Notes: generated by a model from the letters alone, not told the origin. Numbered from the stretch's first letter, positions 2,841 to 20,083 are shown. The stretch: 64,000 nucleotides of DNA from Verrucomicrobiales bacterium (GCA_027483345.1 JAIXUV010000208.1:1612-65611), one strand, 5' to 3'. Program-made: numbers and translations.

Positions 2841-2929
2841 ATGGCTTGCCGTTGATTTAAGCCTGATATCCAATCTGGCTTGGCTATTCGTAGCAAAGTC
2901 TAGCTATTTAAAACAAAGTGATAAAAAAT

Positions 2930-5900: not shown

Positions 5901-6652
5901 AGGCATACGATTGGAAGAGAAAGCCGGATGGCCTTGAGGACGGCGAGTGGGTAAAGCAGGGCGAGATTTATCTTGTCAGGAATGCGGCGAAGTATCCGTT
6001 GCGCCTGAAGGCATTTTCGGACGACTTCTTTCACAAGTTTGTCCAGCGGCCCTACCCGTTAGATTTTGCGGCTCAGGGATTTACCGTGCCATTTTGGGAG
6101 ACTGGCCTGCAGTTCCTGATGCTCAACTCTTGCTGGCAGATAGACGGCTTTCACCGGAAGCGGTCAGGCGTGCATGTTGAAGCTGTCGCCAACGCAATCA
6201 AAGAGGCTCAGATACAGGAGAAAGCAGCGCGCGCTGCGGGCCAATTGTCAAGTGGCAAGCCGCTATTACGGATCGCGGTATGGCATCACGCCATCGCTGG
6301 ACCTGAGCAAATGACCAACACTAATTTTCTCGCCAATTTACAAAAGGCAGGCGTGCGATTAGGAATGCATGGCGATATTCATGAGTTACGTCGGGATGTA
6401 GTTGGACACTGGCATGAGCATGGAAAACAGCTCCATATCCTAGGTGCTGGGAGTTTCGGCTCGCCGCCAGAAAATCGGCCCGAGTCGGTGCCACGACTCT
6501 ACAACGTCATTGAGATCGATCGCGATTTGACTTCAATGAAGGTGCACACAAGGCAGCAGCCCAAGGTCGATGGCGCTTGGACTGGGTGGCACGAGTGGCC
6601 AAATCCCAAAGATCCTAGTAGCAAACTCTCGTACTACCGCGTTGACTTCTAA
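2930..6652 (+). CDS. WD40 - Roc-type small GTPase - COR-like - zinc ribbon - calcineurin-like metallophosphoesterase multidomain protein (ROCO-like)
   Basis: WD repeats (GHNNKVGSVSWSPNGDHFASAMIDGTISIWD; EGHTSSVQYVAFSSDGTLLASSCSNSIRLWR). GTPase motifs: G1 GETNVGKS (3989-4012), G3 DMGGQD (4163-4180), G4 SKLD (4343-4354), G5 ETSS. COR-like stretch (HGICFKHEGLLIFPSLF). CxC-x21-CxxC zinc ribbon (5369-5452). MPE motifs LSDLHF, SGDFTDKG, PGNHD, WHH, HGDIHE. The ORF opens at GTG 2918; ATG 2930 is the preferred start. Confidence 0.85.
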   Translation: MPSNDQNKFFQQAEGWINESLPDGLALSKTLLDQATIIGQLTWSPDGRVLAASGNEGLICWEVRSWRCLPPFEGQMRQFNSIAFDPTGEVIACGNGNYSVNLWEVASQRLLVSLSGHNNKVGSVSWSPNGDHFASAMIDGTISIWDTKTWNSRRIGPWKGLKPQKKRKGVICSVAWSWNSKQISGASYDLAIWDPNTGSRIFLVQTDHILLDVAWSPRIQTHLLAAGYSNNSVQIWNANTRTKFRDLEGHTSSVQYVAFSSDGTLLASSCSNSIRLWRCSDWQEVAVIRNRPLGLFGPIEFHPTLPLLAAAQSNIAKGNSQSAIHILKLDLAQLLGQPHKSAHTYTSAKIVLVGETNVGKSYLAHRMATGEPPKEGAINSTHGMKFWPLEPERLSPRAKAPVGERRDVVLWDMGGQDEYRLIHQLFLHDTTLALVLFDPTRGAPAFKEVETWNKALENQLRGRTAVKLLVGSKLDKLSTTIDRQAVQHLVKVCGFRDYYETSSLTGRGVVELSEAAAEAIDWDGLGKTTRPELFQAIRDEIARQRSNGVVVVLFDDLDRELQTNEESRTFSLMKHVVAMSSNPEAGTEALNAVCSQLASQGIIARAKTSSGKSALILRVEEVERYAGSLIIAAKNNPRGVPGLELRSIAHENFSLPGISDQDRLPRAQEKPVLECTVQLLLEHGICFKHEGLLIFPSLFAHASEEADGKLQHSVSLYYDFAGAIDNIYASMVAWLVLSKEFGKVRLWLDRAEFEVKGGGLCGLRKVGRLGGFAHVDVYFEKATGDRQRMEFISFVEDHLARNGVEIREHVAIKCSCNNEFSEDTLRQRIARGEKNVVCPVCETRHNLSEGATASRERDMSINQHTWALRTRIEELRQILTESVVQVLGKAKAANPATDPIRILHLSDLHFTAATPVKARLRWLIDDIKQHGGLGFNELDYLVISGDFTDKGSLDGFEKAYEFVSRLTEEFGLSAERCIFVPGNHDVSDLEEAYDWKRKPDGLEDGEWVKQGEIYLVRNAAKYPLRLKAFSDDFFHKFVQRPYPLDFAAQGFTVPFWETGLQFLMLNSCWQIDGFHRKRSGVHVEAVANAIKEAQIQEKAARAAGQLSSGKPLLRIAVWHHAIAGPEQMTNTNFLANLQKAGVRLGMHGDIHELRRDVVGHWHEHGKQLHILGAGSFGSPPENRPESVPRLYNVIEIDRDLTSMKVHTRQQPKVDGAWTGWHEWPNPKDPSSKLSYYRVDF

Positions 6653-6808: not shown

Positions 6809-8350
6809 ATGCTCAACGGCGAAATTCGCAGTAAAGTTGATGCCCTTTGGAATGCCTTCTGGTCCGGGGGCATAGCCAATCCGCTCGAGGTCATCGAGCA
6901 GATCACGTATCTGCTCTTCTTGAAGCGCTTGGATGATCTCCACACCCTAGAGGAGAACAAGGCGGCGCGCCTGAAACTTCCCCAGCTCGAACGCCGCGTT
7001 TTTCCCGAGGGCAGGGATCCCCGGGGTAGGGACTATTACGATTTCCGGTGGTCCCGCTTCAAACACCTTGAAGCCAAGGAGATGTTCGATGTGGTGAACG
7101 ACCATGTGTTCCCCTTCCTTCGCACGCTCGGTGGTGACAGCTCCACCTACGCGCACCACATGAAGGACGCACGCTTCACCATCCCGACGCCGGCACTGCT
7201 GGCCAAAGTGGTGGATATGATCGACGGCGTGCCCATGGAGGACCGCGATACCAAGGGCGACCTCTACGAGTACATGCTGGGGAAGATCGCCAGCGCCGGG
7301 CAAAACGGGCAGTTCCGCACTCCCCGGCACATCATCCAGCTCATGGTCGAGCTGACCGCGCCGTCCCCGCGGGACGTTATCTGTGATCCCGCCTGTGGCA
7401 CTGCCGGCTTCCTTGTGGCGGCTGGGGAGTACCTGCGCCAGCACCACCCTGGGATTCTCCGCGGCCCCGAACTCAAGGAACACTTCCACCACCACCTGTT
7501 CCATGGATTCGACTTCGACAACACCATGCTCCGCATCGGCAGCATGAATCTGCTGCTGCACGGCGTGGATAATCCCAATATCCGCTACCGCGATTCGCTG
7601 GGACAGGATCACTCGGGAGAGGAGGAGAAGTACACGCTGATCCTAGCCAATCCGCCTTTCGCCGGATCGCTCGACTACGAGAACTGCGCCAAGGACCTCC
7701 AGCAGATCGTGAAGTCGAAGAAGACCGAACTGCTCTTCCTCGCTCTCTTCCTGCGCCTGCTCAAGTCCGGCGGACGCGCCGCTGTCATCGTGCCCGACGG
7801 CGTGCTCTTCGGCTCGTCCAACGCGCACAAGACCCTGCGCCAGATCCTTGTCGAGGAACAGAAGCTGGACGCCGTCATCTCCCTGCCCGGCGGCGTTTTT
7901 AAGCCCTACGCCGGCGTCTCCACCGCCATTCTCCTCTTCACCAAGACCAACTCCGGTGGCACGGACCACGTCTGGTTCTACGATGTGGACGCCGACGGCA
8001 TGTCGCTCGACGACAAACGCACCGAACTACTCCCGCCGGAGAAGCTCGGCCCAGTGCCCAGGACTGCGCTCTCGGCCGACGACCACGCGAAGAACAATCT
8101 GCCCGACATCCTCGCCCGCTGGACGCAGCGCGACCGGGCCGAGCGCCAAAATCCGCGCACCGCACAGAGCTTCTGTGTGCCCAAGGCCGACTTGGCCGCG
8201 CAGGGCTACGACCTCTCGCTCAACCGCTACAAGGAAGTCTTCCACGCCGAAGTCGCGCACCGCCCGCCCGCTGAAATCCTGAAAGCCCTCGGCCAACTGG
8301 AGGCGGTGATTCAGCAGGGCATGAAGGAACTGGAGGAGATGCTGAAGTGA
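6809..8350 (+). CDS. hsdM: type I restriction-modification system methyltransferase subunit M
   Basis: HsdM_N-like start (KVDALWNAFWSGGIANPLEVIEQITYLLFLKRLDD), GQFRTPRHI, motif I DPACGTAGFL and motif IV LANPPFAGS. Its stop overlaps the hsdS start (GTGA at 8347-8350). Confidence 0.95.
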   Translation: MLNGEIRSKVDALWNAFWSGGIANPLEVIEQITYLLFLKRLDDLHTLEENKAARLKLPQLERRVFPEGRDPRGRDYYDFRWSRFKHLEAKEMFDVVNDHVFPFLRTLGGDSSTYAHHMKDARFTIPTPALLAKVVDMIDGVPMEDRDTKGDLYEYMLGKIASAGQNGQFRTPRHIIQLMVELTAPSPRDVICDPACGTAGFLVAAGEYLRQHHPGILRGPELKEHFHHHLFHGFDFDNTMLRIGSMNLLLHGVDNPNIRYRDSLGQDHSGEEEKYTLILANPPFAGSLDYENCAKDLQQIVKSKKTELLFLALFLRLLKSGGRAAVIVPDGVLFGSSNAHKTLRQILVEEQKLDAVISLPGGVFKPYAGVSTAILLFTKTNSGGTDHVWFYDVDADGMSLDDKRTELLPPEKLGPVPRTALSADDHAKNNLPDILARWTQRDRAERQNPRTAQSFCVPKADLAAQGYDLSLNRYKEVFHAEVAHRPPAEILKALGQLEAVIQQGMKELEEMLK

Positions 8351-9444
8351 AATGGAACACTGTAAGATTCGAAGACGGTGTCTATTCTCGCAGCTCCGGC
8401 GCAACTGGTCTGGCTCAAAGCCTTTGGGAAGAAGGCGGGCGCTATCCTGTGATTGGCCAAGGAGCCAAATTCATCGAAGGTAGAACCAACCGCGCAGATC
8501 TTTTGGTCACACCCAATCCAGCCGTCGTTCTTTTCGGTGGGCATACCCGTCGCACAAAATTCGTAGATATCCCGTTTGTACCAGGTCCAAACGTCAAGAT
8601 CCTCGAACCTAAGGGAATTCTAGACGCGAAGTTCCTGTTCTATTTTCTCGAGCAGCTTCCAATCGAGAGCCGCGGCTACGCCGATCACTTTCCTGAAGTT
8701 CGACGGAGTTCAATCCCTGTGCCGACGCTGCTCCAGCAGCGGCGGATTGCGGAGGTGTTGGACCAAGCGGAGGCGTTGCGGGCCAAGCGTCGCGCTGCCC
8801 TCGCCCAACTCGACTCCCTACCCCAATCCCTCTTCCTCGACCTCTTCGGCGACCCAATAGTTAATCCGAAGATGTGGCCACGGAAACAACTCTCCGAAAT
8901 CGGCACACTTGACCGGGGAGTATCCAAGCATCGCCCACGCAACGATCCGGAGCTCTTAAATGGGCCGTATCCCTTGGTGCAGACTGGCGAAGTCGCAAAC
9001 TGCAACGGATACATCCGCGAATACCACAGCACCTATTCCGAAATTGGCCTGCGGCAGAGCAAACTGTGGCCTTCAGGAACTCTTTGTATTACGATTGCTG
9101 CGAACATCGCAAAGACCGGAATTCTAACATTCGACGCATGCTTTCCAGACAGCATCGTGGGATTCCGTGCTGAAGATCCCGCGATGGTAGAGTTCGTGCG
9201 AGGCTGGCTTTCGTTTCTCCAAAAGTCGCTCGAAGACGCCGCTCCCGAATCGGCTCAAAAGAATATCAACTTGGCTCTGTTACGAAACCTCGCGATTCCA
9301 CTTCCCCCAATCGGATTGCAGCGCGAATTCGCCCGGCGAGTGACAGCGGTGGAGGCGCTGAAGTCGGCGCAGCGCGCGTCGCTGGCGGAGCTGGACGCGC
9401 TCTTCGCCACCCTCCAGCACCGCGCCTTCAAAGGAGAACTCTAA
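8347..9444 (+). CDS. hsdS: type I R-M specificity subunit S (two TRDs, two conserved regions)
   Basis: TRD1, then central conserved helix (QQRRIAEVLDQAEALRAKRRAALAQLDSLPQSLFLDLFGDP), then TRD2, then C-terminal conserved helix (LQREFARRVTAVEALKSAQRASLAELDALFATLQHRAF). Translationally coupled to hsdM. Confidence 0.9.
   Translation: MKWNTVRFEDGVYSRSSGATGLAQSLWEEGGRYPVIGQGAKFIEGRTNRADLLVTPNPAVVLFGGHTRRTKFVDIPFVPGPNVKILEPKGILDAKFLFYFLEQLPIESRGYADHFPEVRRSSIPVPTLLQQRRIAEVLDQAEALRAKRRAALAQLDSLPQSLFLDLFGDPIVNPKMWPRKQLSEIGTLDRGVSKHRPRNDPELLNGPYPLVQTGEVANCNGYIREYHSTYSEIGLRQSKLWPSGTLCITIAANIAKTGILTFDACFPDSIVGFRAEDPAMVEFVRGWLSFLQKSLEDAAPESAQKNINLALLRNLAIPLPPIGLQREFARRVTAVEALKSAQRASLAELDALFATLQHRAFKGEL
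9322..9427 (+). repeat. direct repeat copy A (hsdS 3' conserved region)
   Basis: About 105 nt, cgcgaattcgcccggcgagtgacagcggtggaggcgctgaag...ccagcaccgcgcc. Matches 10566-10670 with about 8 mismatches by hand alignment. Confidence 0.85.
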
Positions 9445-9452
9445 ACCAACAA

Positions 9453-10529
9453 ATGAAGCTGCGTTGTTCAAATAAGGAACATGGTTTTGAACCTCTGCTG
9501 GAGAAAATACCGGCTGCTAAGCGAGTCACCATCTTGAGCTATTCGCTCGACGAGAATCCCAAAAGCTATTTGTGGGAAACGTTACACAAACTACCAGCAG
9601 CAAGTGATTTGACGGTCATCACGAATATTCCGGGCAGGTGGGATTCCTACGGTCGAAATCAGACGTCGAAGATGAAGGATCGATTTGATGCATATTTGGA
9701 TAACCTCGCCGCGGAGAAATTTGAATGTGCGTTTGAAGTTTACTTCTCCTTCAATAACCATGCGAAAGTGCTTGTCGTCGATGACATGGCCTACGTCGGC
9801 TCAGCGAATTTCACAGAAGCGTCAGCGCAGAAATGGGAGGCAGGGGTAATCCTCTCCGATAAAAGTGAAGTTGATGAGCTTCAGGCATTCATAAATAGCA
9901 TTCGCGCTTCGTCAATTCCTATGCTCAAGGCTGCCACTTCCAAGGAGGCGCGCCCTCTTCTAAAGCTGCTGCGGTGGAGTTTTGAAATCATCCGCTCTGT
10001 TCGCGAGGAAAATGGTTTCATCCTGTCGGACGATCAACACTGGATCGACGATCCGGAACGGAGTCAAAGAGAAAGCGTCCAGATCTCAGATGGACTAAGA
10101 GCATTCTTGAGCGAGTGCCGAACCGCAGCTGAGGCGTTACTGAAAAGATGTGATGGAGACCAAGAAGTCCTTAACGTAGATATTTTGCTCGATGTAATTG
10201 GTTTCGTCCGCTACTTCGATGAGCAGGATTACAACGATTCTCTCGCGAAACCATTCGATGAATCAGCTCAATCAAGCCACCTAGTCGAAAAGCTGCTTAT
10301 CGAATGTTCCAATGACGCCAACGTGGACGATGTGATGCGCCACCCGGAATACCATGAGCAACTTGAAGCAGCCAGAAGCGCCAGCGAAAAGGAACTGGAT
10401 GGAGCTGTTGTCAAGGCCGTAGACGATCTCGTAAAATACATAGAAAAGACTATCAGTAAATTGCGGAGTTCATTTGGGCCAGAGGATGTCTCACCTGAAA
10501 TCGACAACACCGGAAGCAAGAATAGATGA
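9453..10529 (+). CDS. PLD-family (single HKD) nuclease-like protein with an uncharacterised C-terminal helical region
   Basis: HKD motif NNHAKVLVVDDMAYVGSANFTEAS (HxK-x4-D-x5-GSxN). AT-rich gene: hand counts of single 60-nt lines give about 37-50% GC. Confidence 0.8.
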   Translation: MKLRCSNKEHGFEPLLEKIPAAKRVTILSYSLDENPKSYLWETLHKLPAASDLTVITNIPGRWDSYGRNQTSKMKDRFDAYLDNLAAEKFECAFEVYFSFNNHAKVLVVDDMAYVGSANFTEASAQKWEAGVILSDKSEVDELQAFINSIRASSIPMLKAATSKEARPLLKLLRWSFEIIRSVREENGFILSDDQHWIDDPERSQRESVQISDGLRAFLSECRTAAEALLKRCDGDQEVLNVDILLDVIGFVRYFDEQDYNDSLAKPFDESAQSSHLVEKLLIECSNDANVDDVMRHPEYHEQLEAARSASEKELDGAVVKAVDDLVKYIEKTISKLRSSFGPEDVSPEIDNTGSKNR

Positions 10530-10679
10530 GCAATCTCCCCTCTTCCTCAATCCCAAGCACTTAGGCGCGAACTTGCCCGGCGAGCGACTGCGGTGGAGGT
10601 GTTGAAGTCGGCGCAGCGCGCGTCGCTGGCCGAGCTGGACGCGCTCTTCGCCAACCTCCAGCACCGCGCCCTTAATTGA
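10530..10679 (+). pseudogene. hsdS: orphan remnant of an hsdS 3' end (about 49 codons)
   Basis: Translates to ISPLPQSQALRRELARRATAVEVLKSAQRASLAELDALFANLQHRALN*, paralleling the hsdS tail IPLPPIGLQREFARRVTAVEALKSAQRASLAELDALFATLQHRAF. No TRD or start codon lies upstream. Confidence 0.75.
10566..10670 (+). repeat. direct repeat copy B (hsdS 3' conserved region)
   Basis: Partner of 9322-9427. GC-rich island between two AT-rich genes. Confidence 0.85.
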
Positions 10680-10684
10680 GAATT

Positions 10685-11836
10685 ATGAACCTGTCATCCT
10701 CATGCTTTAAGGACCAAAAACTCCAAAGGCACATTGAGAAAAATGGTAAGGTGGGGAGTTGCGATGGGACGGGAGATAATTATGTGAAGGTGGTTGCGGC
10801 AAATGCTCTCAGTTCGCTATTCAAACCGCTGCTTGATCTGTACGAGCCATTTCGCGGTTCGACTTGGGATTACTTGCATACTCTTTCGGGTAACACATTG
10901 TTTGATTGCATTCAGGACGACGATGGATGGGAGGTTTTTGCTAAAGCCATTTCTCCCGAAGTCGGGTGTCAAATCTTGGATGCAATTCGCGATGTCACCA
11001 GTCCCGACGGAAGTATTCGAAGTGATGAGGAATGGGTTAACAAAAACCAGTTTTATCAGGCGATGCAGCTCGGTTGGTGGGACGCGTTTTCCAAGCAGTT
11101 GAAGCACGCCCGCCGATTCATTCCTGATGTCGGCAATAAAAGCGTGGGTGACCCGCGCAAAGTTCTTTGTGAACACTTGAGCGAGTTCGAGTACCCGCTT
11201 TTAGTGGGCAAGACGCTTTATCGAGCGCGAATCGGGTGGGATGACAAATCGGCGGTTGGACATTCGCTTCCAATCGCCCCCGGCAAAGAAATGGGTGCCC
11301 CTCCACCGGAGAAGGCTACAGCCGGCCGGGCCAATCCTGCAGGCGTGAGCTACTTGTATGTTGCGGAGCAAGAGGCGACGGCGGTGCAAGAAGTGCGAGC
11401 GTACGTCGGCGCAAAAGTTACTGTGGCTAAACTAGAGGTCACCAAACCGTTGAGGTTGGTAAATGTTGCAAAAACAAGGCGCGTTTTCAGTCCATTCCTG
11501 CATCCCAATTTAAAAAATGTTCTGTTTGCTTACGACATCCTTGCTGTGCTCAACGAAAAGCTGTCACGACCAGTTGATCCGAACACAAGCCACCTCGATT
11601 ACCTGCCGACTCAATATCTCGCCGAGGTTGTGTTAGATTACGGCTACGACGGGATTCGATACAAAAGCGCAGTGTCCGAGGATGGAGTCAATGTCGTGGT
11701 TTTTGACCACGGAAAGACTGCTGTTTTTGAAACGAAGCTGATCGAAGTTACGGCTATGAAGCTGAAGTATCGCGACCTCTCTGGCTACTCACGAGGATCG
11801 CCGAAGTCTCGGATGAAATCGAGAAAATCACTATGA
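10685..11836 (+). CDS. RES-domain protein with a 190-aa N-terminal extension
   Basis: RES signature: R in TAGRANPAGVSYLYV, E in AEQEATAVQEVRAY, S in DGIRYKSAVSEDGVNVVVFD. The N-terminal Cys-containing domain is unassigned. AT-rich. The ORF opens at TTG 10676; ATG 10685 is preferred. Confidence 0.8.
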   Translation: MNLSSSCFKDQKLQRHIEKNGKVGSCDGTGDNYVKVVAANALSSLFKPLLDLYEPFRGSTWDYLHTLSGNTLFDCIQDDDGWEVFAKAISPEVGCQILDAIRDVTSPDGSIRSDEEWVNKNQFYQAMQLGWWDAFSKQLKHARRFIPDVGNKSVGDPRKVLCEHLSEFEYPLLVGKTLYRARIGWDDKSAVGHSLPIAPGKEMGAPPPEKATAGRANPAGVSYLYVAEQEATAVQEVRAYVGAKVTVAKLEVTKPLRLVNVAKTRRVFSPFLHPNLKNVLFAYDILAVLNEKLSRPVDPNTSHLDYLPTQYLAEVVLDYGYDGIRYKSAVSEDGVNVVVFDHGKTAVFETKLIEVTAMKLKYRDLSGYSRGSPKSRMKSRKSL

Positions 11837-12348
11837 GAAGCTATGCGCTCAAGCCAGCACTCCAAGCGCTTGAGTTCGATGGCGCGCTGCTCGCGCGGGG
11901 CTTCTGGCTCTACGTTTGGGAAATCACAGCCGGGGACGGTGGCACGGTTCACTACGTGGGCCGAACGGGAGACAGTTCCTCGTCCAACGCGCAGTCGCCT
12001 TTTGCCCGGCTCAGCCAGCACCTCGGGAAAAACCAGAACTCCAACGCGCTCAGGAGGAATCTGGAAAAAGCAAAGGTGGTTCCCGAGGAATGCCAGAAGT
12101 TCCGGCTCTTCGCCTGTGGTCCGATCTTTCCGGAGTCCAAGAGTCGAGACGAACACATGCGGTCGCGTGACAGCGTTGCAGCTCTAGAGAAGGCGCTGGC
12201 GGACGCAATGCGCGCGGCGGGCTACGACATGATGAATGAGGTGCGGTCCCGCAAGACTCCTGACCGTCAGTTGTGGCAAGTGGTCGTTGGCACCTTTGGG
12301 GCGCGGTTTCCAAAGCTCCAAAATCTGCCCTCGCCCTGCGATTCGTGA
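11833..12348 (+). CDS. GIY-YIG nuclease-like protein
   Basis: FWLYVWEITAGDGGTVHYVGRTGD resembles the UvrC-type GIY...YVG motif. It is followed by a conserved Arg (FARLSQHL) and a Glu helix (VAALEKALADAMRAAGYDMMNE). ATGA overlap with the upstream RES gene; GTGA overlap with the downstream RES gene. Confidence 0.6.
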   Translation: MRSYALKPALQALEFDGALLARGFWLYVWEITAGDGGTVHYVGRTGDSSSSNAQSPFARLSQHLGKNQNSNALRRNLEKAKVVPEECQKFRLFACGPIFPESKSRDEHMRSRDSVAALEKALADAMRAAGYDMMNEVRSRKTPDRQLWQVVVGTFGARFPKLQNLPSPCDS

Positions 12349-12941
12349 CCAAGTTCCACCCCAACCCACGGTTCCGAGAGTTCCGCGACCTCCTTGCGGC
12401 AAACACGGACCTGTTCCAGCCGTGGTCCGGCACTCTGTTCCGGTTCCAAGCGGTGGATTTTCCCGCCCCGGAGGACGTGCTGAGCGGTGCGGGCGCGAAA
12501 TGGCGTGGCGGACACTGGAACCCGCCCGGAGTGCCGACACTCTACGGCAGCACCACGGACACGGCGGCCCTAGAGGAGGGCAAGGCGAACGACCGCTATG
12601 CCGGGATCGTTACCCGTTGTCCCCGCCTGTTGGTGGCGGTGGAAGCCCGTTTGGAACGAGTTCTGGACCTCGGCGCCGCTCTGGTGCGACGTCGGCTCGG
12701 CCTGAAACTGGTGGAGTTGCTGGCAGGGGACTGGCGGAAGCTGACGGATGCGGGCCAGGAGAGCCTGACCCAAGGCATGGGCCGGGCAGTCTACGTGGCG
12801 GGCGGAAGCGGCCTCCTCGCGCGATCCGCGGCCTGCAATGGCGGGGTCAATGTCGTGGTGTTCCCCGGCAATCTCCGACCGGGAGAAAGCCTGGCGGTGG
12901 TGGAGGAGGGGAAGCTGCGCAGGCTGACCCGTGGAAAATGA
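12345..12941 (+). CDS. RES-family toxin (RES-Xre type)
   Basis: SGAGAKWRGGHWNPPGVPTLYGSTTDTAALEE and GLLARSAACNGGVNVVVF match the RES-domain layout. GTG 12345 overlaps the preceding stop. The track ORF opens at ATG 12273, which would overlap the previous gene by 76 nt. Confidence 0.75.
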   Translation: MTKFHPNPRFREFRDLLAANTDLFQPWSGTLFRFQAVDFPAPEDVLSGAGAKWRGGHWNPPGVPTLYGSTTDTAALEEGKANDRYAGIVTRCPRLLVAVEARLERVLDLGAALVRRRLGLKLVELLAGDWRKLTDAGQESLTQGMGRAVYVAGGSGLLARSAACNGGVNVVVFPGNLRPGESLAVVEEGKLRRLTRGK

Positions 12942-13386
12942 AATTGTTACCTGCAAAAGTGCAGGTTATGTTGCGAGCAGTGTTATGCGTACCGTTGCCA
13001 AGCCAAAGAACGTCGCCGGAAGCCTGACCCAATTCCGGTTCAGCCATCGTGGAGCCGGGGACTTCTCCCAGCTCATGCGGGTCTATCGGGAGAAGTTCCA
13101 TCTCGCCCAGCCGGTGGTGGTGCGGTTGACCGGTTTTTCGCCGCGTTCGGTGGCCAAATGGGCGCAGGGCGAGACGCCGTCGCAGAAGCAGGAGAAGGCC
13201 CTGGTGGAGATGGACCGGTTGCTGGACGGCTTGGCGCGGGTGATGGAAGCCCAGGAGATCGGTCGCTGGATGACCACGGCCAACCCCGCGTTCGATGGTT
13301 CGACCCCGGCGCAGGTGGTCGAGCGGGGTGAAGCCGACCGCATCTGGCGCATGCTTTATGACGTGGAGTCAGGTCAGCCGGGCTGA
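12931..13386 (+). CDS. Xre/MbcA/ParS-like antitoxin (DUF2384 C-terminal domain)
   Basis: The C-terminus IGRWMTTANPAFDGSTPAQVVERGEADRIWRMLYDVESG is typical of the DUF2384 toxin-binding domain. The N-terminal part (LTGFSPRSVAKWAQGE) is HTH-like. The start is GTG 12931 (overlapping the RES stop) or ATG 12985. Confidence 0.8.
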   Translation: MENEIVTCKSAGYVASSVMRTVAKPKNVAGSLTQFRFSHRGAGDFSQLMRVYREKFHLAQPVVVRLTGFSPRSVAKWAQGETPSQKQEKALVEMDRLLDGLARVMEAQEIGRWMTTANPAFDGSTPAQVVERGEADRIWRMLYDVESGQPG

Positions 13387-13491
13387 ACGCCTGCCGATGG
13401 CCACAGCCTCCATTTCGGTTTGCCGACGAAGCTGTTCACCCTCTTCGCAGCCCGCGAGCACGGAGCCGTCCTATAAGAACGTTGAGCCCTC

Positions 13492-14445
13492 GTGCAACGG
13501 ATTCTAAGTCATCACCTCTGGCGGGAAATCTCTGCCAGGTCGACAAAAGCCAAGCGACGCCAGGCTGCCATCGCATACGTCACCGAGGACCTTCTTCGCT
13601 TCAAGCGGGGTGACCTGTTGGTGACCGATGCCTCCAGGGCGGCAATCCGTTCGGGCGAGACCAGCGCTAAGCTCCTGGCGACTTTGTTGCGGCGGGGTGT
13701 GCGGGTGCATTCCTGCGCAGGCCTGCATGCCAAGGCCATCCTGCTCGACGAGGTGGCTGTGATCGGTTCGGGCAACATGTCGCGGGCTTCACGTTCCACC
13801 CTGATTGAAGCGGCTGTGATGACCGACGCCCCTTCGACCGTCAGCGGGGTTGCTTCGCTGATTGCCCAGCTCGCTCAACAGTCACCCGAACTGGACCGTG
13901 ACGCCGTGGCTGGTCTTTGCGCGATCAAGGTGGTTCGCCGTGGCGGGCCGAACGTCGTGGCAAAACGCAACCTTCAGCCAAAGATAAAGCCTCTTGGACA
14001 CAATGCGTGGCTGGTGGCGGTGCATGAATTCGACGAGGATTTGGTTCGAAAGGAACAGAGGTTGGTGGAAGCGACGATGGCGGAGTTGGTTCAACGGCAT
14101 GGCTGTCGGGCGGATTCCATCGGATGGATCCGATGGGACGGCGCTGGCCCCTTTCTGAAGGCGGGTAAACCCGGTGATCGCATCATTCAGGTCTACAGCC
14201 GGAAGGACGGCTCAAGGCCGGTGTCAGTCCTTAAGTCAGTTGCCGTCCTGGATCGCAAGCGCCGGGCTGGAACAACGTTTGTCTTCGTGGCGCAACCGTC
14301 TGGACGAAGGCCAGAGATGTCCTTCGCGAACTTCAATCGGTTCTTGAAAAAACTCGGTGTGGGGCGACCGCCAGGGGCAACCACGGAACGCCTGCTTGAT
14401 CCCAGCCTTGCCGATTCCATTTCAAGTGGATGGAACTCGGCCTAA
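13492..14445 (+). CDS. PLD-family (single HKD) nuclease-like protein
   Basis: HKD motif GLHAKAILLDEVAVIGSGNMS in the N-terminal 130 aa. The C-terminal 180 aa are unassigned. GTG start. Confidence 0.8.
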   Translation: MQRILSHHLWREISARSTKAKRRQAAIAYVTEDLLRFKRGDLLVTDASRAAIRSGETSAKLLATLLRRGVRVHSCAGLHAKAILLDEVAVIGSGNMSRASRSTLIEAAVMTDAPSTVSGVASLIAQLAQQSPELDRDAVAGLCAIKVVRRGGPNVVAKRNLQPKIKPLGHNAWLVAVHEFDEDLVRKEQRLVEATMAELVQRHGCRADSIGWIRWDGAGPFLKAGKPGDRIIQVYSRKDGSRPVSVLKSVAVLDRKRRAGTTFVFVAQPSGRRPEMSFANFNRFLKKLGVGRPPGATTERLLDPSLADSISSGWNSA

Positions 14446-14475
14446 TCCGCAACCTCCGGCTTCTGCCGAGTCGCA

Positions 14476-16206
14476 ATGCAACAACAGAACATCCCGATCA
14501 GCTCGCTGGTGGACATGTATAAATCCGGTGGACTGCGGCTGCCCGAGATTCAGCGGCATTACGTGTGGCGTTCGACCCGCGTGCGCGACTTGCTGGATTC
14601 TCTGTATCGGGGTTATCCCAGTGGCTCGATCCTGATGTGGGAGACGGACGAGCCGGTGCCCACACGTGACGGGGCCATCGCCCAGGACACTACGGCGTTC
14701 GCCGGCCGGAAGCTGCTGCTCGACGGCCAGCAGCGTATCACCTCGCTCACTGCCGTGCTGAACGGGGAACCGGTAAGAGTTCGAGGCAGGCAGCGCCCCA
14801 TAGACATTCTCTTCAACCTGGAGCATCGCGAAGGACCTCCCACCGAGGTGACGGACGTGGAAGGTGACCAAGACTTTCCCATGACGCCCGGCGATGAGGA
14901 GAGCGATGAGTCCGAGGAGGTCGGGGTCGGCGAGGCGGCTGTCGCAGAGCGCTTCAAGGACTCCACGTTTGTCGTGGCGAGTCGCGCCTTGCAGTCCCAA
15001 CCCCAATGGGTTTCGGTTAGTGAGGTCTTCCGGACCGCGAGTGACTCAACAATTCTCAAGAAGTCCGGCGTGGTCTCCTTCGACGATCCGCGATTCCAGA
15101 AGTATTCCGAGCGCCTGAATCGCCTCCGACAGATCGCCCGTTATCAGTACGTGGTCCACGTGCTGGAGCGTTCGATGAATTACCAGGAAGTGACCGAGAT
15201 TTTCGTCCGGGTGAACTCCCTTGGAGCCAAGCTTCGGTCGTCAGATCTGGCTCTTGCCCAGATGACCTCCCGCTGGCCAAACCTGCTCAAGGAATTGGAA
15301 GCCTTCCAAGAGGAATGCGAGCAGAGCTGGTTCACCATCGACCAGGGGCAACTGGTGCGGGCCGTTGTGGTCTTCGCCACCCACCAGTGCCTTTTCCACA
15401 CGGTGGGGAAGACCCCGATTTCAGACCTGAAGCAGGGATGGGCGGAAGCCAAGGAGGGCCTCCGATTCGCCATCAACTTCCTGCGTAGCAACGCCGGGAT
15501 CGAGGACGAAACGCTGCTATCATCGCCCATGTTCATCCATGTGTTGGCTGCGATCAGCCGCAAGAAGGACAACCGGTTGAGCCAGGCCGAGCAGAATTCG
15601 CTGCTTCACTGGCTGCTGGTGGCCAATGCGCGGGGACACTTCTCCCGCGGCTCGTCAGAGACCGTGCTGAACGAGGATCTGGCCATCGTTTTCCGCAGCG
15701 GCCAAGTGAGCGCCTTGTTGGACCCATTGAAGCGCCAGTTCGGGCGACTGCATATCGAGCCAGATGACCTCGCGAACCGGGGAGCCAACAGCCCGTTGTT
15801 CTCCCTAGCCTATCTGGCTCTGAAGGCGGGTGGGGCGAAGGACTGGTTCAGCGGGCTGGGGCTGTCGCTCACCCACCAGGGAAAGCTCCACTTCATCCAG
15901 TGGCACCACATCTTTCCCAAGTCCTTGCTCAAAGAGCGTCGATACGAAACAGGCGAGATCAACGAGATCGCCAACATGGCCTTCATCTCCGGCCAGACCA
16001 ATCGTCGAATCAGCAACAAGGAACCATCGGAATATCTCGCGGGCATCGTCGCCGATCAAGGGCAGCAGGCCCTCGACAGCCAGTTGGTTCCAACAGATCC
16101 AGCTTTGCTCCAAATGGACAAGTACCGCGAGTTCCTTCGGGTTCGCCGAGTATTGCTCGCCCAGAGGATGAACGAGTTCATCCAGGAGAATTCCGGAATG
16201 GCATGA
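14476..16206 (+). CDS. GmrSD/BrxU-like type IV restriction enzyme (DUF262 + DUF1524)
   Basis: N-terminal DUF262 motifs (LPEIQRHYVW, DGQQRITSL). C-terminal His-Me finger (IQWHHIFPKSLL ... NMAFISGQTNRRISNK). Confidence 0.9.
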   Translation: MQQQNIPISSLVDMYKSGGLRLPEIQRHYVWRSTRVRDLLDSLYRGYPSGSILMWETDEPVPTRDGAIAQDTTAFAGRKLLLDGQQRITSLTAVLNGEPVRVRGRQRPIDILFNLEHREGPPTEVTDVEGDQDFPMTPGDEESDESEEVGVGEAAVAERFKDSTFVVASRALQSQPQWVSVSEVFRTASDSTILKKSGVVSFDDPRFQKYSERLNRLRQIARYQYVVHVLERSMNYQEVTEIFVRVNSLGAKLRSSDLALAQMTSRWPNLLKELEAFQEECEQSWFTIDQGQLVRAVVVFATHQCLFHTVGKTPISDLKQGWAEAKEGLRFAINFLRSNAGIEDETLLSSPMFIHVLAAISRKKDNRLSQAEQNSLLHWLLVANARGHFSRGSSETVLNEDLAIVFRSGQVSALLDPLKRQFGRLHIEPDDLANRGANSPLFSLAYLALKAGGAKDWFSGLGLSLTHQGKLHFIQWHHIFPKSLLKERRYETGEINEIANMAFISGQTNRRISNKEPSEYLAGIVADQGQQALDSQLVPTDPALLQMDKYREFLRVRRVLLAQRMNEFIQENSGMA

Positions 16207-16415
16207 AGCGGATGAGTCCACCGACTCTCAACTCTTGACCGGGAATCCGCGAGGGGACACTGCGTGATCTTCCCGCCATCCTTGCCGGCTGAGGAAAGAA
16301 GACGTCGCTGGATCAGGCTTCAAAACGATTACTCGACCGGCAAAATCATTATTTTGAGGGGGCATTCGATCAATTCTGTTACAAGCCCGTCCGGCCGTTT
16401 CGCCGGCCCAGACTC

Positions 16416-19400
16416 ATGAGCCAGTTCGCCTTCCTGAAATCTGAATGGCCCGAGCTGTACGAGGCTGCGTCGAAGGCCGAGTCCTTGGCCTTTCCCGATG
16501 CGCGGACGGCCTGCTTCCACGCGCGGAGGGCGTTGGAGCTGTTGGTGCATTGGCTCTATCGACACGATGCCGGGTTGAAGCTCCCGTATCAGGACAACCT
16601 CAGCGCGTTGCTCCACGAGCCGACCTTCAAGGCCACTGCGGGAGAGGCGGTTTTTGCCAAGACAGTGCTGATCAATCGGCTAGGCAATGGCGCGGTGCAT
16701 GGGCATCGCCCGGTGCCCGAGATCGATTCGCTGACGGCGGTCCGCGAGCTGTTCCATGTCGCCTATTGGCTGGCACACACGTACGGGCGCGGAACGAAGC
16801 CACCGCCGGGACTGTTCTTCGATCCGAAGGGGCTCCCGAAGTCCACGACCCTTCCAAATCAGAGTCTCGAGCAGCTTCAACGGCTGGAGACGGAACTGCG
16901 CGACCGGGACCAGAAGCTGTCGGAGTTGTTTGCGGACAAGACCGAGCTGGATGCCGAACTGACGCGCCTTCGGGGTGAAATTGCCGCGGCAAAAAAGGCC
17001 AACACGGCGCAGGCCGACACCCACAACTATTCCGAGGCCGAGACGCGGGACTGCTTCATCGACCTGCTGCTCCGGGAGGCTGGGTGGCCGCTCAACCAGG
17101 AACGCGACCGGGAGTTTCCGGTCGACGGGATGCCGAACAACGAGGGCAGGGGATTCGTGGACTACGTGCTCTGGGGAGACGACGGGCTCCCTTTGGCGCT
17201 GGTGGAAGCCAAGCGCACCCAGCGCGACCCGCGCATAGGCCAGCAGCAGGCCAAGCTCTATGCGGACTGCCTGGAGAAGCAGTTCCGTCGTCGTCCGGTC
17301 CTCTTCTATACGAACGGCTACGAGCATTGGATGTGGGACAGCGCCAACCATCCGCCCCGGGCCGTGCAGGGATTCTTCAAGAAGTCGGAGCTGGAGCTGA
17401 TGATCCAGAGGCGAACGACCCGCAAGAGCTTGGCGACTGCGAAGATCAACGAAACGATTGTCGGTCGCTATTACCAGACCCGGGCCATCCGGCGAATCGG
17501 GGAGGCCTTCGAGAAGGACCACGACCGAAAAGCATTGGTCGTGATGGCGACCGGCGCGGGCAAAACGCGGACGGTCATCGCCTTGGCCGATCTGCTTATG
17601 CGCTGCAATTGGGCCAAGCGCGTGCTGTTCCTCGCCGACCGGGTGGCGCTGGTGAACCAGGCGGTTAACGCCTTCAAAAAGCACCTAACCGAATCGTCGC
17701 CGGTGAACCTGGTCACCGAGAAAGACATCGAGGGCCGGGTGTATGTCTCGACCTATCCGACGATGATGGGCCTGATCGATGAGACCCGGGACGGCCAGCG
17801 GCGTTTTGGAGTCGGTCACTTCGACCTGATCATCATCGACGAGGCGCACCGCTCGGTCTTCCAGAAGTACCGGGCCATCTTCGCCTACTTCGATTCGCTG
17901 CTCGTGGGATTGACTGCGACACCCAAGGACGAGGTCGACCGCAACACGTACGGCCTGTTCGATCTGGAAGACGGTGTGCCGACGGATGCCTATCCGTTGG
18001 AGGACGCGGTGGCCGACCATTTCCTCGTGCCGCCCAAGGCGGTTTCCGTGTCCCTGAAGTTCCCCCGCGACGGCATCCGATACGACGAGCTGTCTGAAGA
18101 GGAGAAGGAGGAATGGGACGCCAAGGAGTGGGATGATGACGGGGCGGTTCCCAGCCAGGTCGAAGCCGAGGCGGTCAACAAGTGGCTCTTCAACCAGGAT
18201 ACGGTGGACAAGGTGCTGGAGCACCTGATGACCCATGGCTTGAAGGTTGCGGGCGGGGATCGGCTCGGGAAAACCATCGTCTTCGCCAAGAACAACGCCC
18301 ATGCGGAGTTCATCGCCCAGCGGTTCAACGCCAACTATCCGCACTACAAGGGGGAGTTCGCGCGGGTCATCACTTTCAAAACGGAGTACGCACAGACCCT
18401 GATCGATCAGTTTTCGATCCGGGACAGGTCACCTCACATCGCCATTTCCGTGGACATGCTCGACACGGGCATCGACGTGCCGGAAGTGGTGAACCTGGTG
18501 TTCTTCAAGCTCGTGCGGTCGAAAACCAAGTTTTGGCAGATGCTGGGGCGGGGGACGCGGCTTTGTCCGGACCTCTTCGGACCGGACCAGCACAAGGAGT
18601 TCTTCTTCGTCTTCGACTACTGCCAGAACCTGGAGTTCTTTAGCCAGAACCCGGATTCGACCGAGGGAGCCTTGGGAGAGTCGTTGGGCAAGCGGCTGTT
18701 CAAGGCGCGGCTGGAGGTCATTGGCGAACTGGACCGCAAGCTGGCCGGGGTTGCTGGAGAAAGGAAGGAACCTGAACAGTACCTGCGTAGTGATGTCGCG
18801 GCGTTGCTGCAGGTTGAAGTCGCCGCGATGAATCTAGACAACTTCGTCGTGCGTCCCAAGCGGCGGCTGGTCGAACGCTACTCCAAGCCGGAATCCTGGC
18901 GGGACCTGAGCGTGGAATCCTTTCACGAGTTGGCCCAGGAAGTCGCCGGTCTGCCGACGGAGCTGGAGCCGGAAGACGAGGAAGCGAAACGGTTCGACCT
19001 GCTTCTGCTACACCTTCAACTCGCTGTACTACGGGCCGAGCCCGCCTTCGCGAGATTGCGGGATCAGGTCCGGGCCGTCGCCGGTTTGCTGGAAGAGAAG
19101 TCCGGTATTCCGATGGTTCACGAGCAGTTGCCGCTGATCCAGGACATCCAAACCGACGAGTGGTGGGAAGACGTCACCACACCGATGTTGGAAAACGTCC
19201 GGAGGCGGCTGCGTTCCCTGGTGAAGTTCATCGATAAGCGGCACCGCAAGCCCATTTACACGAACTTCGAGGATGTGATGGGCCCGGCGACCACGGTGGG
19301 ATTGCCGGGATTCGCGCCCCACGACACGTTTGAGAAGTTCCGGGACAAGGCGCGTGTTTTCTTGAGGGAGCATCAGGAACACCTGGCCATCCATCGGCTG

Positions 19401-19796
19401 CGGACGAATCAGCCATTGACCGCGTTGGACCTGTCGGAACTGGAGCGGATGTTCCGGGAGAGCGGGGTGGCGAGTCCGAAGCAGTTGCAGCGGGCGAAGG
19501 ACGAATCCGAAGGGCTGGGTTTGTTCGTCCGGTCTTTGATTGGGATGGACCGTGAAGCGGCGAAGCTGGCTTTCAGCGAGTTCACCGCCGGGAGGACCTT
19601 GAGCGCGAACCAGATCGAGTTCGTGAACCTGATGGTGGACCACCTGACCGAGCACGGCGCCATGAAGCCCGAGTTGCTCTACGAGTCCCCGTTCACCGAT
19701 CTCAATCCGCAGGGACCCGAAGGCGTCTTCAGTTCCTCGCAGGTGGACCAGTTGTTGGAGCTGCTCTCCCGGGTCCGGACGCGGGCGGTGGCCTGA
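16416..19796 (+). CDS. hsdR: type I restriction endonuclease subunit R
   Basis: N-terminal DUF4145-like region. PD-(D/E)xK (GFVDYVLWGDDGLPLALVEAKR). Helicase motifs VMATGAGKTRT, IIIDEAHRS, GLTATP, QMLGRGTR. C-terminal EcoEI_R_C-like tail (LSANQIEFVNLMVDHLTEHG). Confidence 0.95.
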   Translation: MSQFAFLKSEWPELYEAASKAESLAFPDARTACFHARRALELLVHWLYRHDAGLKLPYQDNLSALLHEPTFKATAGEAVFAKTVLINRLGNGAVHGHRPVPEIDSLTAVRELFHVAYWLAHTYGRGTKPPPGLFFDPKGLPKSTTLPNQSLEQLQRLETELRDRDQKLSELFADKTELDAELTRLRGEIAAAKKANTAQADTHNYSEAETRDCFIDLLLREAGWPLNQERDREFPVDGMPNNEGRGFVDYVLWGDDGLPLALVEAKRTQRDPRIGQQQAKLYADCLEKQFRRRPVLFYTNGYEHWMWDSANHPPRAVQGFFKKSELELMIQRRTTRKSLATAKINETIVGRYYQTRAIRRIGEAFEKDHDRKALVVMATGAGKTRTVIALADLLMRCNWAKRVLFLADRVALVNQAVNAFKKHLTESSPVNLVTEKDIEGRVYVSTYPTMMGLIDETRDGQRRFGVGHFDLIIIDEAHRSVFQKYRAIFAYFDSLLVGLTATPKDEVDRNTYGLFDLEDGVPTDAYPLEDAVADHFLVPPKAVSVSLKFPRDGIRYDELSEEEKEEWDAKEWDDDGAVPSQVEAEAVNKWLFNQDTVDKVLEHLMTHGLKVAGGDRLGKTIVFAKNNAHAEFIAQRFNANYPHYKGEFARVITFKTEYAQTLIDQFSIRDRSPHIAISVDMLDTGIDVPEVVNLVFFKLVRSKTKFWQMLGRGTRLCPDLFGPDQHKEFFFVFDYCQNLEFFSQNPDSTEGALGESLGKRLFKARLEVIGELDRKLAGVAGERKEPEQYLRSDVAALLQVEVAAMNLDNFVVRPKRRLVERYSKPESWRDLSVESFHELAQEVAGLPTELEPEDEEAKRFDLLLLHLQLAVLRAEPAFARLRDQVRAVAGLLEEKSGIPMVHEQLPLIQDIQTDEWWEDVTTPMLENVRRRLRSLVKFIDKRHRKPIYTNFEDVMGPATTVGLPGFAPHDTFEKFRDKARVFLREHQEHLAIHRLRTNQPLTALDLSELERMFRESGVASPKQLQRAKDESEGLGLFVRSLIGMDREAAKLAFSEFTAGRTLSANQIEFVNLMVDHLTEHGAMKPELLYESPFTDLNPQGPEGVFSSSQVDQLLELLSRVRTRAVA

Positions 19797-20033: not shown

Positions 20034-20083
20034 TCGGTTTTGTAAACCGTTGGTCGTCGGTTCAATCCCGACAGCTGGCTCCA
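20034..20083 (+). pseudogene. tRNA-Thr(UGU)-like 3' fragment (anticodon arm to CCA), putative att remnant
   Basis: Folds as anticodon stem tcggt/accgt, loop tttgtaa (anticodon TGT), variable tggtc, T-arm gtcgg-ttcaatc-ccgac, then acceptor 3' strand agctggc, discriminator t and CCA. No complementary 5' acceptor strand or D-arm is found upstream. Confidence 0.5.

Follow-up and report, generated by a model that had tools for sequence, protein, structure and literature searches.

In a 64,000-nucleotide (nt) stretch of DNA from a freshwater Verrucomicrobiales bacterium (hereafter the window), the genes hsdM, hsdS and hsdR of a type I restriction-modification (R-M) system lie on the + strand at 6809-19796, together with cargo genes of the same orientation that separate hsdS from hsdR. 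Very probably, this locus is an intact type I operon carried on a tRNA-Thr island, its hsdS-hsdR interval is an insertion hotspot throughout the R-M family, and at least four to five independently acquired units were stacked there by recombination between the ends of hsd genes. The units that we propose are PLD1; the long RES gene; orf171; RES2-Xre; and PLD2-GmrSD.

An hsd operon with seven embedded genes

The interval from hsdS to hsdR measures 6,971 bp and holds seven cargo genes and one hsdS 3' remnant, arranged as follows.

6809-8350, +: hsdM, type I methyltransferase subunit (HsdM_N and N6_Mtase, NPPF motif)
8347-9444, +: hsdS, specificity subunit (Methylase_S in two stretches; conserved 3' tail of ~125 nt, 9319-9444)
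9453-10529, +: PLD1, single-HKD phospholipase-D (PLD)-family protein, DrmC-like nuclease candidate (PLDc_2, E 2.4e-9)
~10531-10688, +: hsdS 3' remnant, last ~50 codons of a different hsdS allele, putative recombination scar
10685-11836, +: long RES protein (PF08808, E 2.4e-17; ATG start, the gene-calling tool having chosen TTG at 10676)
11833-12348, +: orf171, uncharacterised family with 1,710 homologs, possibly GIY-YIG-like
12345-12941, +: RES2, short RES-domain toxin (PF08808, E 2.6e-15)
12985-13386, +: Xre/ParS-type antitoxin (Xre_MbcA_ParS_C, NF049845; alternative GTG start at 12931)
13492-14445, +: PLD2, second single-HKD PLD-family protein (weak PLDc_2)
14476-16206, +: GmrSD/BrxU-like type IV restriction enzyme candidate (GmrSD_N, E 3e-30)
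16321-16415, +: hsdR leader, conserved and non-coding, candidate promoter/operator (86% identity to locus L031 over 70 nt)
16416-19796, +: hsdR, restriction subunit (DUF4145, PD-(D/E)xK nuclease, DEAH helicase, EcoEI_R_C)
20035-20083, +: 3' 49 nt of tRNA-Thr(TGT), right end of the island (attR), where homology to locus L090 begins

An initial annotation of this DNA had described translationally coupled hsdM and hsdS genes, a sole hsdR about 7 kb downstream on the same strand, and seven toxin or nuclease genes plus an hsdS remnant between them, all in one orientation. Our analysis bears this description out. The hsdM and hsdS genes overlap by 4 nt (GTGA), the predicted open reading frames (ORFs) and their domains agree with the inventory, and a search of the window for a second hsdR found none. 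Overlaps of 4 nt are also present at the long RES/orf171 and orf171/RES2 junctions, hsdS and PLD1 are separated by 8 nt, and PLD2 and GmrSD by 30 nt. The larger spacers are the ~155 nt from PLD1 to the long RES ATG at 10685, which is filled by the remnant, the 105 nt between Xre and PLD2, and the 209 nt between GmrSD and hsdR. Since most of these junctions overlap or are very short, the array could be read as one transcript.

The hsdS-hsdR interval is occupied in nearly all related loci

We compared the window with 80 loci encoding HsdR relatives (designated by L numbers), whose proteins are 67-79% identical to the window HsdR in full-length alignment. Their sources are Verrucomicrobiota, Planctomycetota, Nitrospirota, Cyanobacteria, Acidobacteriota, Gemmatimonadota, Proteobacteria and Methanosarcina. 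Where enough flanking sequence was available, nearly all loci have an hsdM of the same family and an hsdS upstream of hsdR, on its strand. The spacing between the hsdS stop and the hsdR start was measurable in 62 loci; it spanned 44 to 7,545 bp (median 2.0 kb) and was at least 4 kb in 10 loci. The two genes were adjacent (gap <300 bp) in only three of the 62, and the gap was occupied in the other 59. Thus, the split operon is the normal state of this R-M family, and the gap is a hotspot for defence and toxin-antitoxin genes. The initial annotation had regarded the locus as a landing pad for conflict genes. This view was supported by the comparison, although it describes a property of the whole R-M family and a phenomenon that has already been published.

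The window gap is the second longest, exceeded only by that of L005, and its seven genes, against a median of two predicted ORFs per gap, place it among the fullest examples. The hsd strand carries 121 of the 152 gap ORFs. The Pfam domains counted in 149 gap ORFs were Fic/DOC (12), DUF6088 (10), AbiEii (9), GmrSD_N (5), HNH (4), ABC-type ATPases (3), DUF3800 (3), Schlafen AlbA_2 (3), PLDc_2 (3), AIPR (2), RES (2), Xre (2) and a few transposases.

Other loci have six of the seven cargo genes in this same interval, singly or in small blocks. PLD1 is found in L005 and L011 (62-64% identity), and RES2-Xre is the sole cargo of L002 (hsdS-RES-Xre-hsdR; RES 65% and Xre 71-75% identity), with a more distant pair in L012. 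Homologs of orf171 occupy the same R-M family in L007, L087, L088, L095 and L096, mostly immediately after hsdS. GmrSD (74-85% identity) lies in the same gap in L054, L059, L077, L081 and L085, and in L085 PLD2-GmrSD forms a colinear block with 78% nucleotide identity over window positions 13441-16197. The closest homolog of the long RES gene (70% identity) is in L081, where its start coincides with the stop codon of an intact hsdS and GmrSD, Fic and hsdR follow. We also considered long RES-orf171-RES2-Xre as a single four-gene module; this was rejected because each unit is found alone elsewhere.

The composition of the cargo is likewise mixed. The G+C content at third codon positions (GC3) was 0.82 for hsdM and hsdR, 0.81 for Xre, 0.78 for RES2, 0.76 for GmrSD, 0.72 for orf171, 0.66 for PLD2, 0.60 for hsdS, 0.53 for long RES and 0.51 for PLD1. 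This mosaic (0.51-0.81 among the cargo) suggests that the cargo was assembled piecemeal.

These comparisons bear on whether the arrangement could be an assembly or binning chimera, or else an ancient, fixed eight-gene operon. The window does derive from a metagenome-assembled contig, and conserved hsd segments attract contigs across organisms, visible as loose ends. Against this, every junction is covered by single unitigs with 0 differences in five metagenome samples from two studies (2022 and 2025), indicating that the gene order is not an assembly artefact. A fixed operon, which would show one gene order and uniform composition, is at odds with gap lengths and contents that vary across the 62 loci and with the low GC3 of PLD1 and long RES relative to hsdM and hsdR. 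We consider either possibility extremely improbable.

Remnants of hsd gene ends lie between cargo genes

The last ~125 nt of hsdS are repeated at 10565-10691, with 88% identity to 9321-9447, and weaker similarity extends back to ~10531, right after the PLD1 stop codon. A search with nhmmer recovered this remnant at 10565-10686 (E 3e-27). The remnant is in frame, contains a premature in-frame TGA at 10677-10679, and ends in the ATGA overlap (10685-10688) that opens the long RES gene. It is 91-93% identical to the hsdS tails of other loci versus 88% to the resident tail, and remnant and long RES gene together are colinear with the intact hsdS-RES junction of L081. The foreign-like tail and this colinearity suggest that the remnant is what is left of an older hsdS formerly located in front of the long RES gene.

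A census with a profile of the hsdS tail, run on both strands of 67 loci, revealed 16 extra 5'-truncated hsdS tails in 13 loci, all on the + strand and inside the hsdS-hsdR gap. A second profile, covering the initial 180 nt of hsdR, similarly revealed six hsdR 5' stubs of 56-81 nt, only inside gaps. Neither extra hsdS tails nor hsdR stubs were found outside the gaps in the other ~1.0 Mb searched, and the window gap itself yielded no hsdR 5' stub. All three loci with PLD1 have an hsdS tail on either side of it, and the order in L081 is tail-RES-tail-GmrSD. A 27-nt mini-tail precedes orf171 in L007, and a weak tail match, below the census threshold (E 6e-4), lies just past orf171 in L087. In L005 (5584-5694) and L039 (8106-8243), two of the six hsdR stubs form chimeric scars between cargo genes: 69-77 nt from the start of hsdR run directly into the final 50-62 nt of hsdS, which resembles what a head-to-tail union of two operons would leave.

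Between loci, homology picks up again precisely at the hsdR ATG. The hsdS tail reaches 95-97% nucleotide identity to tails in other phyla, whereas hsdR reaches only ~70-76%. Within its last codons (AAAGGAGAACTC TAA, or GGGGAATTATGA), hsdS carries a Shine-Dalgarno-like sequence together with the stop/start overlap of the gene that follows, and this ribosome site and overlap may explain the nucleotide conservation of the tail.

From these scars we infer a recombination mechanism. Cargo would enter by recombination at the conserved hsd ends, namely the final ~125 nt of hsdS and, in loci other than the window, the initial ~70 nt of hsdR. The unit that moves would be an hsdS end with the gene or genes that follow it, so that an incoming piece brings its own hsdS end and the displaced, older end persists as a 5'-truncated scar ahead of the older cargo. 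In the window, an hsdS-PLD1 segment would have overlaid an older hsdS-RES junction, leaving the remnant at 10531-10688. Arrays could grow by two routes, either by a piece recombining into another operon or by the joining of two operons, with the hsdR start of one meeting the hsdS end of the other. The Shine-Dalgarno-like sequence and stop/start overlap in the hsdS end would keep the newcomer gene expressed.

Several observations weigh against this reconstruction. Conservation of the hsdS tail could result from constraint, imposed by contact with HsdM and by the ribosome site for the next gene, and not from frequent exchange. A scar is present at only one of the six cargo junctions in the window; the other five are clean stop/start overlaps, and because they carry no scar, their history is deduced from other loci. 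The related loci are themselves mostly contigs of metagenome-assembled genomes (MAGs). In addition, RES2 may be weakened or inactive as a toxin, since its motif reads GGHWN where L002 and L012 have GGRWN, so that His replaces the conserved Arg.

A variant lacking PLD1, the expected product of tail-tail recombination, was not seen in metagenome contigs; as contigs drop rare variants, this is no sign that it is absent. No published description of hsdS-tail or hsdR-5' scars was found in a literature search of incomplete coverage.

A broader and more tentative proposal, to which we give somewhat less than even weight, is that the hsdS 3' end and the first ~70 nt of hsdR act as a recombinase-free cassette junction, allowing integron-like capture, stacking and swapping of defence genes between phyla with expression kept, and that the orf171 family is an undescribed R-M-dependent effector. 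An actual integron would have a tyrosine-recombinase integrase, attI and cassettes bounded by attC. No integrase domain was present in the ORFs scanned within 1-25104, and the repeats are gene ends, not attC sites; any likeness is functional only.

The R-M genes are intact

HsdM contains PF12161 (HsdM_N) and PF02384 (N6_Mtase), with NPPF at residue 281, and matches the PADLOC model MTase_I (E 3e-189). HsdS has PF01420 in two stretches and matches Specificity_I over its full length (PADLOC, E 1.8e-74). HsdR comprises an N-terminal DUF4145 domain, HSDR_N, ResIII/DEAD, Helicase_C and EcoEI_R_C, and its GAGKT, DEAH, TAT and D249...E263-x-K265 motifs are intact. An NPPF methyltransferase, a two-region specificity subunit and a restriction subunit with predicted nuclease and translocase together identify a type I system, which would methylate adenine (m6A) at specific sequences and restrict DNA at the expense of ATP. 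In NCBIfam, HsdR came nearest to the EcoAI family but scored below the cutoffs of two EcoAI-family NCBIfam models (NF046051, 261 bits, cutoff 550; NF008521, 295 bits, cutoff 729), so that it appears EcoAI-like (type IB-like), with membership not proven.

The initial annotation had raised the possibility that hsdR belongs to a family unable to pair with this hsdMS. We found the same hsdR and hsdM families paired in essentially every related locus. The window HsdM is 66-90% identical to the HsdM proteins of all loci examined, and across 41 loci the HsdM and HsdR identities to the window are correlated (Spearman rho 0.41, p 0.008), suggesting that hsdR belongs with the hsdMS genes of the window.

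It is also conceivable that the R-M system is decaying, hsdR having been orphaned by insertions and the region having become a graveyard of selfish toxin-antitoxin genes. The truncated hsdM of another family at 1932-2840, the premature stop in the hsdS remnant, the loss of the conserved Arg in RES2 and the rebuilt start codon of orf171 would fit this idea. However, hsdM, hsdS and hsdR are full length, retain their catalytic motifs and align end to end with their homologs without frameshifts, the five samples (2022 and 2025) have one and the same sequence, and an occupied gap is the normal state of the family. Decay is therefore improbable in our judgement, and an intact operon remains the preferred reading.

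The cargo as additional defence layers

In this intact operon, the R-M system would restrict unmodified DNA and the cargo would add independent layers, consisting of restriction of modified DNA by the GmrSD-like protein, nucleases of the PLD and GIY-YIG-like kinds, and RES toxins predicted to target NAD+. Defence activity, like the transcription units, is what we infer from sequence.

Both PLD proteins have a single, intact HKD motif, weak similarity to DrmC and a C-terminal half with no assigned domain. PLD1 carries HAKVLVVD and GSAN motifs; PLD2 carries HAKAILLD and GSGN, and its PLDc_2 score is 24 bits (cutoff 27). The GmrSD-like protein has PF03235 (DUF262) with DGQQR at residue 83, and its residues 173-570 match the PADLOC model HEC-05 (E 3e-50). 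At its C-terminus, PF07510 (DUF1524) is weak (19.7 bits, cutoff 23), and the HNH motif, (D/E)H..P in this domain, takes the variant form HHIFP.

RES2 starts at 12345, and not at 12236 or 12273, in a GTGA overlap with orf171. The Xre protein scored 24.9 bits against PF09722 (cutoff 24.5) and below the cutoffs of the NCBIfam subfamily models. A RES toxin next to an Xre antitoxin with a C-terminal toxin-binding domain characterises RES-Xre type II systems of the ParST/MbcTA type. The antitoxin gene usually lies upstream of the toxin gene in such systems; the order is reversed in the window, L002 and L012.

Homologs of the long RES protein combine HEPN/RES N-terminal domain 1 (PF18870) with PF08808, and the ATG of the window gene overlaps the former hsdS stop. 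More distant homologs (41-43%) in L082-L084 belong to another conserved block, in which they follow a 1,530-aa Eco57I-type methylase-like protein and a 669-aa protein of unknown function and precede a DUF4365 protein; genes for an ADP-ribosyltransferase and REase-ARP lie downstream of this block in L082 and L083.

Alternatively, a functional link might tie the cargo to the R-M complex, with the cargo genes serving as back-up effectors that are set free once a phage has inhibited the restriction enzyme, in the way that PrrC is held latent by EcoprrI. Precedents are PrrC itself (PMC3874165) and the stronger protection by TgvAB within its full cluster (PMC11411939). The tight coupling of genes on one strand also agrees with this possibility, as does the near confinement of the orf171 family to this R-M family, usually right behind hsdS. 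On the other hand, many different combinations of the cargo families exist, cargo is absent from three loci, and some families have homologs outside R-M loci: PLD2 amid housekeeping genes in L086, orf171 after a helicase-nuclease in L094, and long RES in the Eco57I-type loci L082-L084. We regard wiring to the R-M complex as unlikely and favour independent layers acquired at a shared site.

The orf171 family

Where the initial annotation listed a GIY-YIG nuclease, the ORF is present and the label could not be established. The family of the orf171 product counts 1,710 detectable members of ~160 amino acids (aa) and has no annotation. The product itself had no match in Pfam, NCBIfam or PADLOC, no sequence match in the PDB and no PDB fold neighbour by Foldseek. 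The AlphaFold (AF2) model is confident, with a predicted local distance difference test score (pLDDT) of 90 and a predicted template modelling (TM) score (pTM) of 0.86. The best matches of the model in BFVD were phage GIY-YIG homing endonucleases, at weak scores (E 5e-3 to 0.1, TM 0.3-0.4). The invariant residues Y27, Y41-x-G43, R59, E119 and N135 and the order beta-beta-alpha-alpha-beta-alpha are compatible with the GIY-YIG fold. Because the invariant residues fit the pattern, a GIY-YIG identity is plausible, if not confirmed by the modelled structure.

Homologs of orf171 are embedded in the same R-M family in six of seven contexts (the window, L007, L087, L088 and L094-L096), usually right on the hsdS stop. 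In three loci, the homolog is followed by a PLDc_2 protein of ~390 aa.

Expression of hsdR

The initial annotation had pointed to an AT-rich stretch in the gap preceding hsdR. This stretch is the best-conserved part of the leader, a palindrome, CAAAATCATTATTTTG (CAAAAT-N4-ATTTTG), at 16341-16356, whose pattern occurs once in the window with 0 occurrences expected by chance. In L031, the leader corresponds to the ~100-nt region between a divergent fic gene (-) and hsdR (+), an arrangement in which the hsdR promoter is expected to lie in the leader. Classical type I systems have separate promoters for hsdR and hsdMS. We also found no terminator-like site in a scan of the intergenic spacers, so that read-through into hsdR is possible.

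Two results speak against a promoter in the leader. Among 85 loci, only L031 shares it, and a consensus scan found no sigma-70-like promoter in 16207-16415. The promoter and terminator scan returned fewer matches than shuffled sequence, which makes it uninformative for a verrucomicrobial promoter. A search for RNA sequencing runs that contain the locus also came back empty. On balance, we favour an hsdR-proximal and possibly regulated promoter, acting in addition to read-through, as an unproven explanation of how hsdR is expressed. The leader was also considered as the end of an insertion sequence and rejected in this role, since its neighbour in L031 is a Fic gene and not a transposase. That Fic gene (L031 1619-3158, - strand) is seemingly frameshifted near 2750-2776, with its N-terminal part and Fic domain in different frames, and is either a pseudogene or affected by an assembly error.

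Relation to known embedded systems

Defence genes inside type I R-M operons are well established. Examples are PrrC in EcoprrI (PMC3874165); TgvAB in the type I operon of VPI-2 in Vibrio cholerae, reported together with frequent GmrSD homologs in type I loci (PMC11411939); and DarTG2 between hsdS and hsdR in enteropathogenic Escherichia coli (EPEC), at a site called a potential recombination hotspot (PMC12255303). Payne et al. (10.1101/2024.01.29.577857) used "guilt by embedding" for defence genes found within Hma and other systems. The window shares the hallmarks of this arrangement, with non-hsd genes between hsd genes on one strand at a site variably occupied in related operons. It is a rich example of a known, published arrangement, and embedding itself is not new.

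The window differs from each of these systems in specific ways. As with TgvAB, a GmrSD-family gene lies inside a type I operon, where restriction of modified DNA would be added to restriction of unmodified DNA; TgvAB, however, consists of two proteins and is the sole cargo, whereas the window encodes a single-protein BrxU/HEC-05-like candidate as one of seven cargo genes. DarTG2 is likewise a toxin-antitoxin pair between hsdS and hsdR, but it is one embedded pair with an upstream RptR repressor in another R-M family, for which no scars or mechanism were described, whereas the window has RES-Xre and five more genes. PrrC of EcoprrI (type IC) and the rlo genes of Campylobacter hsd loci are the classical extra genes inside hsd operons (PMC3874165; PMC11411939); PrrC is physically regulated by its R-M complex, whereas such a link is hypothetical for the window cargo. 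The survey of Payne et al. shares the embedding concept, and the window GmrSD matches their HEC-05 model; the survey centres on Hma, and hsdS-tail or hsdR-5' scars are not described in the portion of it that was accessible (10.1101/2024.01.29.577857). Finally, conserved hsdS segments also serve as recombination homology in the reassortment of hsdS target-recognition domains (PMC3874165). There the product is a new specificity, whereas in the window foreign genes would be inserted and stacked downstream of hsdS.

With an occupied gap as the rule, this R-M family should be a good hunting ground for defence gene candidates, among them the orf171 family, the two single-HKD PLD proteins and the HEPN/RES-NTD1-RES protein. 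The gene-end scars give a concrete, testable account of embedding, of which the literature searched contains only hints ("potential recombination hotspot"). What deserves follow-up here is the recombination-scar model and the orf171 family.

The genomic island and its upstream genes

The island that carries the R-M locus is low in GC and at least 20 kb long; its left end is outside the window. At the right end (attR), the tRNA-Thr(TGT) fragment is completed to a perfect tRNA-Thr fold by a loose end in metagenome run X1. L090, from a Verrucomicrobiales MAG, is colinear with the window from 20035 on at 94% nucleotide identity, the homology starting inside an intact tRNA-Thr gene. In L090, this gene (11022-11096) is followed by YidC and no island is present.

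Directly upstream of hsdM, the window encodes a protein of 1,244 aa (2918-6652; GC3 0.52) that combines WD40, Roc GTPase and calcineurin-like phosphoesterase domains and has PADLOC matches to an effector endonuclease and to PDC-S60. The truncated hsdM that precedes it shares 28% identity with the main hsdM and is of a different family. It ends after ~300 residues, before NPPF, and the cut adjoins, on the upstream side, the junction with the low-GC WD40-Roc gene.

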